NCBI RefSeq assembly: GCF_036365525.1 | Contig: NC_090377.1 | Span: 77,547,198 to 77,611,197 of the forward strand | Source of the DNA: Heterodontus francisci | Taxonomy: Eukaryota | DNA: 64,000 nucleotides | Direction of reading: 5' to 3' | Part shown: piece by piece, positions 2,338 through 21,335 of the stretch | Position numbering within the stretch: position 1 is the first letter of the stretch | How the letters are laid out: each line of letters begins with the position of its first letter | Translations under genes and position numbers: made by a program | Notes under the pieces: model-generated | Seen by the model: only the letters and a program-made list of their open reading frames with translations | Told to the model about the DNA's origin: nothing | Database searches by the model: none

Positions 2338-2764
2338 ATGAGTTCATATTTTGTAAATCCATTCTACTCCAAGTACAAGCCAGGAGAAGCCCTAAGTCCC
2401 ACTTACTACGACTGCCGGTTTCCACAAGACGTGACCAGCAGACACGCTGTCGTCTATGGTCCCAGCAGCGGCGCAAGCTTCCAGCACCCAGCTCAAGTTC
2501 AAGATTTTTACCATCATGGGACATCAGCACTTCCTAATACTGGCTTTCAACAGAATCCTTGTGGAATTACGTGTCATGGTGACCCCTCTAAATTTTACGG
2601 ATACGATAACTTACAAAGACAGCAAATTTTTACGACACAGCAAGAGGCCGATCTGGTACAATATCCTGACTGTAAATCGTCTAGCAGTAATATTGGCGAA
2701 GAACCAGAGCACTTAAATCAGAACTCGTCTCCTACTCAAATGTTTCCCTGGATGAGACCTCAAG
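2338..2764 (+). CDS. hoxd8: Homeobox protein HoxD8, coding exon 1
   Basis: Starts [14 protein letters not shown] and ends with the paralog group 8 (PG8) hexapeptide region MFPWMRPQ. Donor CAAG|GTTGGA, phase 1. Assigned to cluster D from gene content. Confidence 0.93.
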
Positions 2765-2987
2765 GTTGGATATATTAAAATTAGCTTCCATCTCACGTTT
2801 TACTGCTCAGTATTATCGCCAAGGTGTTTAACGCTGTCTGTAAAAGTCTGTTTTTATAGGGACACTTTCTTTGAATGGCATTACCGATCAAAGCAAGGAT
2901 TGTTGCTTTTATTCCTAGTCTGTAGTTATTTGATTGTATGAATTTTATCCGATTTTTATTGTCTCTTCTGATTCTCATGTTCTTTAG

Positions 2988-3283
2988 CAGCTCCCGGTAG
3001 ACGCAGAGGAAGACAAACTTACAGCCGATTCCAAACTCTGGAGCTGGAAAAGGAATTCCTTTTCAATCCGTATCTGACTCGAAAGCGAAGGATCGAGGTT
3101 TCACATGCTCTGGGACTCACTGAGAGACAGGTGAAGATTTGGTTTCAAAATAGGAGAATGAAATGGAAAAAAGAAAACAACAAGGACAAATTTCCAACCT
3201 CTCGGAACGACGACGAGGACGAAGAGGTCAAGAAAGAACAGGAAGAGCCTGAGCAGGAGACAACAGAAAAAGAGACCAAGTAA
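2988..3283 (+). CDS. hoxd8: HoxD8 coding exon 2 (homeobox); full protein about 240 aa
   Basis: Acceptor tctttag|cag. Reads [70 protein letters not shown], then an acidic tail and TAA at 3281-3283. Exons total 723 nt. Confidence 0.95.
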
Positions 3284-3660
3284 CTTTACCCCCTTTGGCC
3301 TCAAAGCAAAACGTCATCCAGTTTGTGCTAATTCCACTGTTAAACGTGTTGACCAGAATAAATCCTCCAGCACATTGATGGCTAGTTTTGTGTAAACAGT
3401 CCACCTGTTTTTGAAGTTCTTTAGAGCCTTAATTCGACATTATTTCTGATGAATTTTGTGTGCATCATTTTAACCTTTGCAATCACCCCCGAAAGATCAG
3501 CCGTCGTATAGAATTTTGCAGCTCCCTTTAAAAGTGGGAAAATCGCAGAAGAAATAGCCATTTTGAATAAAGATTTCATTGCTTTTCAATAGGACGATAA
3601 TATGAAATGATATCGTGATTGATTTAGTTTGTTGATTTTATTTAGCATTTTGTGATTATA

Positions 3661-3681
3661 CCCAACAACATGAACTGCCTA
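3661..3681 (+). promoter_or_regulatory. miR-196 target site in the HoxD8 3'UTR
   Basis: CCCAACAACATGAACTGCCTA against the miR-196a reverse complement CCCAACAACATGAAACTACCTA: one G:U wobble and one bulge. Lies upstream of AATAAA at 3919. Confidence 0.9.
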
Positions 3682-4289
3682 ATAGAATGGATAATTTGGA
3701 ATGTATTGCGAACACACTTAATTAATGATAGAAAAAAAACGTGCACTTGCGATGTGTCTTAATTACTGTGCGTGTAAACTAATTGGTGGTGTATTGCGGC
3801 TGGAAACTCTCAACCATTACCTATCTCCGATACGCATATTATAAACACAAGCAAAAAAAAATTACAAGGTATTCCGCAGCAATAGTCACTTTTTATGATG
3901 GTCGAATGTGATTAAATTAATAAATGTTGATTAAATTTAACTGTGTACTTGTTTCATTTTATGACCAGTATCCAAAAGAAAATAAAAGTAATAAAAGAAA
4001 TTCATTATGCTTTTATTGAGATAATCAGCTGAGATCGCTGGATCACTATATTGCCAGCGTTCTGGAGCTGTTGCGAGATTTTTCCTTTACGGTTAAATCG
4101 GATATACTTTATTTTTGTTTGTCATTTCTGTGGCCACAAGGCGTACGCCTGCCATACAGCACCACAGCTCTGTACCTTGGATGCAAAAGCCTGAAGATGG
4201 CGTGATTCTTTATATGTAGTTATAAAAGTTAATGATATAGCTGATGATTAGAATATTAGTTTATCTATGCCCCAAGTTAAAGTCTTTCA

Positions 4290-5610
4290 AGTTGACCATT
4301 GGCTAATGAAATCACATGCCTGACTCATGTGTGGCTGAAAGGACGCTGTAAAAGTTAGTGTTTGGTGTTAAACTGCGCTCTACTGTACACGTATATCAGC
4401 AAATCTCGTAAAACCGACAATAAAAGTTCTAATACTACAAATCACTCGACAAACTGTGGACTTCTGGATTCCAGTTTATTCTTTTCTGATTTAAAGGCTG
4501 GCGGCGAAAACAGAATCTTCAGTTGTCGAGTAACCTTCCATCTTTCCATTAAACTTTGCTAAAGCAGCGATCAAGCCATATCTAAACTTTAGCCGGATCA
4601 ATGGGCATGTTGCATATAAATGTTAACCATAGGAATTGGCAATTTTTATTTCCACCTTTTCTTTGCGCACATAGCATAATGACATGCTAAGCCTGAATCA
4701 AGAAAAATATTGATAAGAACAAACAGGAAACAATTAGAAGGAGAAAAAAAAGCAAACATTGTACTTCAAATGTTAAGCAAACAATCAAAAGCCCTCGTTT
4801 ATTTGCAGAACTAAAGATAACAGTATACATTTTAACAGCGGACTCCAGAATCCACTTTGATAACAGAGCGATGATATTAAGATTTCTGATTTACGGAACA
4901 GCTTCAGACTTGTAATCGAATGTAATTATATGTCACATAACTAAGTGCCATTTTCCCATAATATCCTCACTCCGTCAGGTAGAGCTTGCCAGATGAAACA
5001 CCAATTAACTAATTCAGACGGACAACAGCGCCGTTTGGAAATTCTAGTTTTGTTGATAGAGGTTTGCGTTGTCTATTTTATGTATCCTAATCTCAACGAC
5101 ACCAATTTTTATTTTAATGCAAATATCTTTAGTGAACGATATGAATACCATAATAGGTGCCCGATTATAACACATCAATAATTTTACAGGACATATCAAC
5201 TATAAATAAACTAATATCAGAGTATTATTTTTGAAATTGCATTCTCGCGCCGGAGAGGTGTCCTTTTACTCAAACTCTCTTGTTTTTTAACAAGTTCTTT
5301 TTATTCTCTCAATATATGTGAGCTGAGCTCCTTTTTGAAAAACATCATTATTTTAAAATTTCATCAAATCTGTTATTAAAACGGTATAAACCAAAGAATG
5401 AAATAAAAAATATTTTTGCATCTGCTGCCATTTTCAAATTGGACGATCAAATACGGGTCTTCACTGTAATAGCGGTAACCACGGGACTGTACAATTACGG
5501 TGGAAGTAGGCCTTATCAACGGTCGTATTAGATGATAGGAATCGCAAGTACCTGCATGCTTTCACTGAACGAATGGTGCGTACAATGGCTTTTGGGTAGA
5601 ATTAGTACTT
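4290..5610 (+). pseudogene. Decayed HoxD7 relic (promoter/5'UTR plus homeobox remnant)
   Basis: CATTGG...ATCACATG promoter motif, then CTCGTAAAACCGACA...ACAAATCAC...CAAACTGTG resembling the Hox7 leader with ATG>GTG at 4456. Degraded homeobox-like sequence at about 5440-5610. Syntenic position fits Hox7. Confidence 0.55.
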
Positions 5611-7007
5611 TGGCGTGGGAGTTAAGCTTAATAATTGCATGGATTTCAAAAGACGATGGAGATCAAAAATTGCCAAACGTATTAAAAATGGTCCTTGTGA
5701 ATCGTTGTGAAAGGTTCCTATTGGTTCTTCAAGCCCGTTCATTTGGGGTTTCTAATCAAACCTCTGCAGAAATTCCTCCATCACTCATTTTCTAAATCCA
5801 TCTCACCCCAGCAATATCTTTTTTGGAACCAGAGTAGGATAACTTGCAAGGTTGAACGTTTTATTCATATTGCAATTTATATTGATCTAACGCTTCTAGT
5901 AGTTTTGTCGTTATCATAAATTAAGAATGAGAAATCGGCGCGTAGGTACTTAACGCTGTTCTGAACTTTCCCCGTTAAGATCACTGCAAAGCATTAGACC
6001 AAAGACAACCAGGCGATAGTCCTTCTCTGGAGTTAAACCCGCGGGAAACATGCGGTTGGGTAGAAATATGGATATCAAACATCCACCAGCCATCATCTTT
6101 TATCCCTGCTAAATGAGGTTCCCGTGAATTTAACATATGTGGCATTAGTTGCCGAGCACGCTCACTGGCAGTGAAGGGAAAAATACCGAATGAACTGATT
6201 CAAACCATTTGCACTTTCATTCACGCTGAATATGTTTACGCAGCGCCGAAATAATGTTATCTGGTTAACCAAATTCTGACCGACCACTGGGATGTGGTTT
6301 TCACTTTATAGAGAGGAATTTTTTCCCTACACTGGAAACACGAGGAATAGAATGAAATGCTCCAAATGCTTAGAAATTGAAGTACAATGTATAATTAGAT
6401 AGCTACATTTGTTGATATTTCATTTCCAGTTTCTCACCTGTATAGAGTGCACCATAGAACATTTATAATAAGTTAATACATTACTTTTCTTATTGATTAT
6501 CATTTGAAGGAAGGAAGCCGCCCCAGCTTTGATATATATTTAGTACGCTAACATGCATTTGGTTTGTTTGTTTCTTACTCCTAACTCGGCCATATCGAAT
6601 GAGCTGAGAAAATCAGGGCAAAACGAAACGAAGAAGCTGTCGGATGCACAACTGGTACATTAGATATTGTGATCGTTAACGTTTAATTATTTGTAGAACT
6701 AGCTTTTTCGAAAATCCTTATGTCTATGCTTGACGTATTTAAAACATGAACTAAAAAGTATAGACTATCAAACAAATTGTAGGGCTTTGATTGCTGTTCT
6801 GTGGAGTGCCCACTGCATTGGGAAATATTTTCCTTTATGTTTATGTTGTCGCTGCACTTCCGCTTATATATTTAGTTAAGGCGTTCGTTACAATACACAT
6901 TATAACAAATAGCTGCAGCAAAGATCTCGTTAAAGGAAACATGGCGCTTGCGAGCTGTACTTTCGAAATCCGCAAGGAATTGCTGCGAATTCCTTTTTGT
7001 TTGAAGA

Positions 7008-10400: not shown

Positions 10401-12631
10401 TACGAGCGTTAGACAGAGTCAGTTGGACTATGTAGCAACCTATGTTCTTAGATCAGAATTACAAGAGGGGTACACAAATCAAAGTTCACAAAGGATAAAT
10501 AAAACCAAACCCTATATTATGGCATTTTATCTAAAACGTACTTGTTAAAATATTACATTTTCTAGTACTTAAACTTAACGCATTGCAAGCTGTAAGTTGC
10601 AATATATGATGCATCGGGAATCAGAACACTTTGAACCGAGGCCTATGCGGTTGTACACTGTAAACTGTATCGCTGAAACCATCCCAATAACGCTGGATCA
10701 ATGCAGTTTTATTGCAGTTGGAACTAACGTGCTGATAATATTGGACAGTGGGGCCTGACTGAACAGCTCCTAACTACATACTATTTTCTTTGGAATATGC
10801 CCAGACTTGAATATTTTGTAATACTTTAGTCCTCCTGTTCTTAAAAACTTCGGTGATAAGTATTCGGCAAAGAAACACAAATAACTCTATTGTCCGCGCT
10901 CCAAGACGTTACGGCAAGCAGTGTACATGTATTTCTGCCAGAGCATAGAAATTTAATACTGTTGCATTAAAAAAACAAGTGAGTGTGGGTTGGGGCGGCC
11001 AAATAATATGGAGAATCCTATTTTATTGCTTATTAATACACTTACACAAGTGGTTATAGGAACACCCTTTTATTTCAGTATAAAAACAATCAGTGTAACA
11101 TATAAATATATCCACCTGTGTTAAATATTACTGCGTTTCTGGGCGGACCTTTGTAACGTTCTTCAGGCCCGCATTAACACGGTCGATATTTGTCATCATT
11201 ACCCCTTATTAACTAATTCCGGATCACAATCTAAGATTTATAAACTGCCTATTAATCAAACGGAAAAAAAACAAATCTTGATTTCAAGTATTACAGTTTT
11301 TGCTCTCGCAGTTTTCTTGCATTTCTGGCCAGCTCGAACTGGTTCCATTAGTTTAAAGTAGACACTATCACTGCCCAGAAAGACAACGGACCAAAAGTGC
11401 AGTCCCTGGAATCTGCACCATTCGTTTTCGAAATGAATGTACATTTGTCGAAGGCTATTTTTATATAATAATGTTTTTAATGAACTCAGCATATACAATG
11501 GAGTGTACATCACACCTCAGAGGCTTAAGCAAATACCACGACCCGCCATAGCGTAAAATGTAGATTCTTCAAGGGAAAACTGCAATAAAGTTCACGGTGA
11601 ATTGCACAGTGAAAATACAAATAAATGTATAACACACTTCCACTTACCTTCTCGGTATGTTGTTCTATAGAGACTGGTGTCAGCGTCGACTTAACCAGTC
11701 ACAAAGTAACATACAGCATTAATCCGTTTTTTTAAAAGTCCCTAATGACAACAGAGAACACATATTGATGTACATTCCTGAGTTTAGTGGACAAGGCGTA
11801 GAAAAAGATGGACCACGTATTTTCACATAAAAAACTAATGAGAAACTTTGTAAAGCCGATTTTAATACATTATCTGTAATGATACAGAACTAATGCATAA
11901 ATAATCTCAGCGCAGTGTTGTCGGAAAACAATACATTCCAACCATTATAAGATCCAGCGACCCGGGCGGTTTGTGCAAGTGTGGGGAGGCTGCCTGCGAA
12001 TCGTACATTTGATTAAGTTGTTTTCCTAGCAAAATAATTTCCACGGCGTCGTTTCCCACAAGAAAGAGAATCTAAATATCTCAAACCGTTTGAGTAATAA
12101 TGAGAATCCGATTTGTGCAGTAGGAATAATTGCTGCGAATATGTATGATTTATTTCCATCACGCAGTTCGCGAATTAAATTATTTATTTACAGTCAGCAT
12201 CAAACTAAGGGGTCAAGTACACAATTAATAGGAAAGAAAGGTGTTCGAAAAAAAGAGGGGGTTAATTGCGCTACAAAATATGTCGCACTATTGCGCTGGT
12301 ATTTTTCATATTAAAGGCATCGTATAAACTTTTGAGGTCCTTAAGTCAGCATACGCCAGTTTTGTTAGTTACTTTACACCTGTACTATACACAAGCGTAT
12401 ATTGTAATAAAATTACTAAACAGGGTTTTTGTATTTACAGAAACATTTTGCGTATACGCTCCAATACATGTCGACAGATACATAATTCATATTTTCTGTT
12501 AACAGAAAGCAGCTTTCTTAACTAACATTTATCTTATAACCATTTTTAAAAAACTGAACCAATTTCGAAAAAGAATGTACGTCAAAGCCTCTTTCGATTT
12601 TGCTTTGTTAAGAGTTTGGCGTTCTCCATGC

Positions 12632-12790: not shown

Positions 12791-12893
12791 AGAGAAATGA
12801 CATGTGCCTTTTATTTCCATATTTCATTATATATCGCGCGGTCTAGTGGCGAATAAACGTCTAAGAACCACAAATCAAACCCCTAAAAGGCAG

Positions 12894-21252: not shown

Positions 21253-21335
21253 CGTCGTCTATATATACCCTGTAGAACCGAATTTGTGTGATGTTTCGGT
21301 CACAGATTCGTTTCTAGGGGAGTCTATGGTCGATG
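21253..21335 (+). ncRNA. mir-10b: mir-10 precursor (miR-10b type)
   Basis: 5p arm TACCCTGTAGAACCGAATTTGTG at 21266-21288 and 3p arm ACAGATTCGTTTCTAGGGGAGT at 21302-21323, with complementary flanks. Canonical position between Hox5 and Hox4. Confidence 0.97.

Follow-up and report, generated by a model that had tools for sequence, protein, structure and literature searches.

The closest described system is a block of conserved noncoding sequence from the Hox clusters of the horn shark, which Kim et al. 2000 reportedly described as the H8/7-6 four-cluster sequence. The block is said to lie just upstream of Hox7 in the A and B clusters and behind Hox8 in the C and D clusters. We know of no proposal that it has a role in polyadenylation, and we know of no living jawed vertebrate that keeps HoxD7. 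The element that we consider here has the same position as the four-cluster sequence, and quite probably it is the D copy. We find copies of the element in A, B, and D, and none in 70 kb of this genome's reduced HoxC region, which also contains no homeobox of Hox8 or Hox9. What is new here is probably the AATAAA hexamer that only the D copy carries, along with its reading as a poly(A) signal, as the element itself had probably already been described as a conserved noncoding sequence. The element marks the exact place of the lost HoxD7.

Three noncoding sequences that are common to all four Hox clusters have been reported (Matsunami et al. 2010, cited in PMC3595034). Like our element, these are noncoding and have been kept between paralogous clusters since the two genome duplications. 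They were proposed to be cis-regulatory elements; the passage that cites them does not give their positions, and they may include our element. A second comparison is the promoter of mouse Hoxa7 (Akirtava et al. 2022, PMC9456764), which, according to excerpts of that paper, shares with our element a pair of E-boxes ahead of a conserved leader; for Hoxa9, the same excerpts describe a CAAT box that adjoins an E-box. The mouse promoter drives a living gene, however, whereas the gene behind our element is gone, its E-boxes have moved away from CACGTG, and its leader contains AATAAA. Third, excerpts of PMC3707753 and PMC4470032 list HoxA14 and HoxB14 of sharks and HoxD12 of amphibians as pseudogenes, which are also Hox remnants in their slots of the cluster. 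We take these pseudogenes to keep coding remnants, while in our element the promoter and the leader alone are recognisable. In the literature that we searched, where subscription papers are under-represented, we found neither a HoxD7 remnant in sharks nor a poly(A) role for the element, and it is not mentioned in the portions of PMC2080641, PMC8293171, and PMC10927551 that were available. The motif pattern of the element had 0 matches in metagenome contigs, and a search with Hox8 exon 1, which scored 166 candidate stretches, gave 1 locus (L039); its sequence breaks off 66 bases past the stop codon, short of the element region.

In the window (the whole stretch of 64,000 nucleotides that was analyzed), a six-frame scan found homeobox genes of groups 8, 5, 4, 3, 2, and 1 on the + strand. 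Cartilaginous fishes keep HoxD2 and HoxD5 (according to excerpts of PMC5054437), and therefore the window is a chondrichthyan HoxD cluster. (HoxD2 was inferred for bichir as well, according to excerpts of PMC3707753.) A homeodomain search of the same genome (31 matches) also found the HoxA and HoxB clusters and the reduced HoxC region, and it found no third intact group-7 gene. Similarly, Hox7 exon 1 was found at A7 and B7 alone (2 matches of the 8 candidates scored). Our comparison set consisted of the four Hox clusters, with 434 kb in total including the window and the upstream part of HoxD, and the genes were annotated by translation. The element holds the group-7 slot, on the same strand as HoxD8 and directly 3' of it. 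HoxD8 has two coding exons (2338..3283, + strand, from its translation) and a stop codon at 3283. A GTG at the end of the element lies 1,173 bases 3' of this stop codon; in the B cluster, the ATG of B7 lies 1,630 bases 3' of the stop codon of B8. An Rfam scan of the window gave no match at the element and a single match elsewhere, the mir-10 precursor at 21259-21330. This is upstream of HoxD4 and is the expected mir-10b.

The first-pass annotation of this DNA had noticed a leader like that of HOXA7 and HOXB7 at 4290..4510, and it had proposed alignments to the upstream regions of shark HoxA7 and HoxB7, to be judged against shuffled sequences and other Hox leaders. These alignments are significant and bear the claim out: 4295-4455, which is 1.0-1.2 kb 3' of the HoxD8 stop codon, is homologous to the promoter and leader of HoxA7 and HoxB7 from the same genome. 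When 4100-4700 was compared to the four clusters with sensitive BLAST, there were two matches with E<0.2 besides the self match, and these directly precede the ATG of HoxA7 (E=3e-5) and the ATG of HoxB7 (E=1e-4). Alignment of 4276-4455 to the 300 bases before the HoxA7 ATG gave a score of 111.5 (z 16.6), and alignment to the HoxB7 upstream region gave 101.5 (z 18.1). In each case, 0 of 300 dinucleotide shuffles equalled the score, and the remaining 32 of 34 Hox upstream regions had z <=2.9. The start codons of B6, B10, C10, A11, D1, D3, D9, and D11 were mis-picked in this set of 34 regions, which is harmless because scans of the whole clusters cover the same question. In particular, a profile for which only the leaders of A7 and B7 were used found 4295-4453 at E=2.3e-14 within the 434 kb of the four clusters, and the next match had E=2.6. 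Two other searches were less informative. A search of the whole genome with the DNA of 4250-4560 returned the self match alone, but this search is too strict for sequences with 70% identity. A two-motif pattern had 3 matches in the genome, all in Hox7 slots, but the reversed control had 16 matches, so the count is at chance level and we use only the locations. Overall, the element is almost certainly a genuine and strongly constrained relic of the promoter and leader of a group-7 Hox gene.

The relic is not a recent copy. Among 84 ungapped positions, D is identical to A7 at 57 and to B7 at 56, while A7 and B7 are identical at 64; because D is equally distant from both and these are closer to each other, the copy is old. 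As excerpts of PMC5054437 give the topology of the Hox clusters as [(A,B),(C,D)], with HoxC and HoxD as sister clusters, the divergence of D would be that of a copy which dates back to the first genome duplication. The first-pass annotation named the element after HoxD7, and the homology to Hox7 and the slot in the D cluster agree with this. On the other hand, the name may be too narrow: HoxC7 is, to our knowledge, likewise missing in jawed vertebrates, and because HoxC and HoxD are sister clusters, the loss of the group-7 gene may predate their split.

The promoter part of the element contains the CCAAT box of the old Hox7 promoter in inverted orientation (CCATTGGCT, 4296..4304, - strand), and its place and spacing are identical in A7 and B7. 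It is followed by two E-boxes (4312..4331, + strand), TCACATG at 4312 and TCATGTG at 4325, which are spaced as in A7 and B7. A, B, and D each have a single match to this pattern of a CCAAT box and two E-boxes, in which the gaps are 9 and 6 bases, and the matches are those before A7, before B7, and in the element. The homolog of the Hox7 leader (4358..4455, + strand) is the most constrained core, as judged by homology and by differences across species. It contains four leader motifs on the + strand: TTTGGTGT at 4361, TATATCA at 4392, CTCGTAAAACCGACA at 4405, and ACAAATCA at 4437. The second-to-last of these, which is 9 bases long, resembles a binding site for posterior HOX or CDX proteins, which speaks for a role at the DNA level. 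D and B7 have the four motifs at -95/-64/-51/-19 relative to the start codon, and A7 has them at -96/-65/-52/-20. Because the offsets in D equal those in B7, the GTG at 4456..4458 (+ strand) is in register with the ATG of Hox7; its reading frame closes after 12 codons. The motifs that the first-pass annotation quoted, and this GTG, are all where it placed them.

As a separate observation, the 8-base ACAAATCA occurs in the window at 4437 and at 12870, and it is also found before the start codons of A5, A6, A7, B5, B6, and B7. In seven genes of groups 5-7 and in the element, it lies 19-36 bases before the start codon. It is a leader motif that is common to the central Hox genes. Another, lone ACAAATCA is at 10474, between the element and HoxD5; we considered whether it could be a remnant of the HoxD6 leader, but it has no support from profiles.

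The start codon is lost, as had been claimed from the sequence. We also compared the element to contigs from two other species (organisms B and C) that cover it. There is no listed difference at the GTG in organism B, which implies that the loss of the ATG is common to both species. The leader was also expected to be better preserved than the coding sequence, and it is: positions that are common to D, A7, and B7 make up 57/98 of the leader, as compared to 35/105 after the GTG (and 16/99 upstream of the promoter). Between HoxD8 and HoxD5, profiles for the exon 1, intron, homeobox, and 3' UTR of Hox7 had no match. At most there is a faint trace of the coding sequence of Hox7 exon 1 at 4456..4575 (+ strand), from an alignment that was anchored at the start codon. 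This alignment had z of 1.9-2.8 against A7 and 0.1-1.2 against B7, and the unrelated starts of HoxA1 and HoxA9 score equally high. Given these marginal z values, the equal scores of unrelated starts, and the lack of a profile match, we do not accept a coding remnant after the GTG. A classical Hox pseudogene is also ruled out, as no broken homeobox, hexapeptide, or exon 1 is recognisable. Because no coding remnant passes any test, the element is a conserved noncoding relic that works like an exapted noncoding element, rather than a classical pseudogene.

The AATAAA hexamer at 4419..4424 (+ strand) is found in the D copy alone and is absent from the A7 and B7 leaders. A textbook poly(A) site has such a hexamer, a cut at CA, and a GT- or T-rich stretch downstream. 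A contig from organism C (in run X5; 556 bases, with a depth of 53) covers 4179-4453 and ends on the + strand with 18 A's, while the window has just CAAA at this position. Further upstream, the contig goes on in sequence that is still related, as 20 of its 30 loose letters agree with 4149-4178. The contig end and the geometry suggest that 4450..4453 (+ strand) is the likely site of cleavage and poly(A) addition, with the putative cut at the CA of 4450-4451. This is 26 bases behind the hexamer and 5-6 bases before the dead start codon. Behind it is a GT-/T-rich stretch (4454..4495, + strand), which is placed like a downstream poly(A) element and presumably acts as one; 19 of the 40 bases from the GTG on are T, and the stretch descends from the first codons of Hox7. 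So the layout is canonical for a poly(A) site, in which AAUAAA precedes the cut by 10-35 bases, the cut falls at CA, and GU-/U-rich sequence follows. Within 4100-6950, 2.7% of places have AATAAA 10-35 bases upstream.

The nature of these data affects how the tail should be read. Run X5 comprises 49 million letters of contigs, guessed to be RNA, from a species other than that of the assembly, and a genomic run of A's in organism C could mimic the tail. All 10 runs are guessed to be RNA, the tail comes from one contig in one of the 4 listed runs of organism C, and contigs by their nature show neither the end, the start, nor the strand of an RNA. From the word share of organism C alone (0.07, where 0.11 would be expected if the sequence were intact and 0.02 if the last 40 bases differed), we infer that its AATAAA is intact. 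Also, two contigs cross the site without a tail (X1, from the same sample as the assembly, at 4308-4679, and X2 at 4334-4694). These may represent read-through, RNAs that begin within the element, or DNA. In X1, there are seven contigs (depth 4-11) that together lie over most of the intergenic stretch between D8 and D5, from 4100 to 6536; these may be tissue-specific read-through or DNA, and X10, from the same sample, has none, an absence that carries no weight. The start of the X2 contig at 4334 could be viewed as a transcription start of the Hox7 type, but as contigs cannot show starts, we did not use it.

HoxD8 is the nearest upstream gene on the + strand, and so the tail in X5 suggests a putative long 3' UTR of about 1,170 bases for HoxD8 (3284..4453, + strand). 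This 3' UTR would include a near-perfect target site of the miR-196 type at 3660..3682 (+ strand), with its seed match at 3674. The 3' UTR of HoxB8 has a similar site (L026, around 5900-5925), with a small change beside the seed, for which reason a search with the exact seed did not pick it up. There are five AATAAA hexamers nearer to the HoxD8 stop codon than 4419-4424. Among the candidates for proximal poly(A) signals are those at 3919, 3981, and 3990 (3919..3995, + strand). The hexamer at 3981 is 698 bases behind the HoxD8 stop codon, and the single AATAAA of HoxB8 is 703 bases behind its own stop codon. From this layout, the hexamers at 3919-3995 are likely to be the older, proximal poly(A) signal of HoxD8, in which case the element would be a distal alternative site.

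On balance, we favor the view that the old Hox7 leader now provides HoxD8 with a distal poly(A) site and that this partly explains its persistence. After the genome duplications, the group-7 gene of the D cluster (or of the ancestral C/D cluster) would have lost its ATG and its coding sequence, and the D leader would have gained AATAAA. HoxD8 transcripts that continued past the proximal signals would then have met the new hexamer and been cleaved at the CA that precedes the dead start codon by 5-6 bases, with the T-rich first codons of Hox7 taking the part of the downstream element. In this way a long HoxD8 3' UTR would have come to enclose the promoter boxes and leader motifs, and these may still bind transcription factors as DNA. 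It was suggested from the sequence that the element retains a regulatory role. Purifying selection on the element is supported, and the transcript-type evidence points to a poly(A) site rather than a promoter-type role.

That the CCAAT box, the E-boxes, and the remaining leader motifs are still present needs some reason other than a poly(A) signal. The serious rival is that the Hox7 promoter still works as a promoter or enhancer, that its role at the DNA level is the main reason for its retention, and that poly(A) use is secondary. It might act on long transcripts into HoxD5, HoxD4, and HoxD3, on antisense RNA, or as a control element that is shared among Hox genes. The CCAAT box and the two E-boxes are spaced exactly as in A7 and B7 and have no listed difference in organism C, while the spacer bases around them change. 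Furthermore, excerpts of PMC9456764 state that the mouse Hoxa7 promoter needs its two E-boxes for activity, and according to excerpts of PMC1831499, the Hox clusters of mammals often contain polycistronic and antisense units. The X1 and X2 contigs do extend past the element on its downstream side, but a contig cannot reveal where an RNA starts, and there was no splice joint in 4100-6950 in any of the four runs (4/4). Also, neither E-box in D has the CACGTG core (they have CACATG and CATGTG), while A7 has one such core and B7 has two; the second E-box in D lacks the CpG of the A7/B7 form, TCACGTG. This departure would fit a weakened promoter. Finally, we do not accept that changes across species avoid the ancestral positions: there were differences at 3/79 of the positions that D shares with A7/B7 and at 10/85 elsewhere (p=0.053), and in the promoter part alone p=0.25. 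We consider it rather unlikely that a working promoter is the main reason for retention, although it is compatible with a poly(A) role and the two may run in parallel.

Another possibility is that the element is ancient, predates the duplications, and served Hox8 and Hox7 jointly from the beginning, so that AATAAA is ancestral and was lost in the A/B branch, and nothing was gained or re-used. Three copies are too few to fix the direction of change under the topology [(A,B),(C,D)] (excerpts of PMC5054437), and three elements are reported to be conserved in all four clusters (in the excerpted text of PMC3595034). But the equivalent position in A7 and B7 is 36-37 bases before the ATG, in the mRNA leader, where we would expect a poly(A) signal to be harmful, and HoxB8 carries an AATAAA of its own, at a distance of 927 bases 5' of the B7 ATG. 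We view an ancestral hexamer as quite improbable.

We return to the distal poly(A) site and to the selection on the element. When compared to the leaders of living genes, the leader of the element, with scores of 110.5 (against A7) and 101.5 (against B7), outscores 11 and 10, respectively, of 16 paralogous pairs of D with A or B leaders (B10 and C10 were left out of this set, as their starts were not found). We also screened seven lost slots (D7, D6, A8, A12, B11, C7, and C8), and a leader was kept at D7 alone, with E=3.4e-16; the others had E of 0.52 or worse, and two of them had no match. In organism B, there were differences at 2/81 positions in 4378-4458 and at 26/192 positions in 4459-4650 (p=0.003). 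In organism C, there were differences at 1/66 positions in 4344-4409 and at 12/121 in 4223-4343 (p=0.024). Some differences had no listed place (4/34 in X2 and 5/18 in X5), and in the worst case, with all of these in the core, p would be 0.054 for organism B and 0.37 for organism C. Purifying selection on the element is supported. A neutral relic that is visible just because the genomes of cartilaginous fishes change slowly is already largely refuted and seems very improbable: excerpts of PMC2746220 do report very high overall conservation for the Hox clusters of sharks and skates, but the adjoining coding sequence is almost erased, six other lost slots have no leader, and the core changes several times less than the flanks between species.

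If the distal poly(A) site is real, then the promoter and leader of a dead gene became the poly(A) site of its neighbor, which would be exaptation at base resolution. Re-use as the 3' end of an mRNA, instead of or besides use as a promoter or enhancer, is a candidate reason for why the noncoding block outlived its gene. A broader version of this idea is possible, and we offer it tentatively: the ancestral C/D Hox7 leader gained the poly(A) signal, so that the mRNAs of HoxD8 and HoxC8 were lengthened to end a few bases short of the dead start codon. This re-use would explain why jawed vertebrates have kept the block in both C and D, and it may extend to human HOXD8 and HOXC8. The death of the Hox7 gene may even have been furthered by the termination of Hox8 transcripts within its leader.

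In the reduced HoxC region (G000:C51:90001-160000, L015-L021), there are homeoboxes of groups 10 and 6 alone, and 200 N lie inside the region. About 3 kb behind C6, there is a faint extra homeobox fragment (E 0.035-0.05). In the homeodomain of C10, the usual E of ELEKEF is replaced by K. Finally, upstream of HoxD13, at around 4700-4800 of L034, we found the 3' part of a homeobox of the group-14 type, which is probably the last exon of HoxD14.
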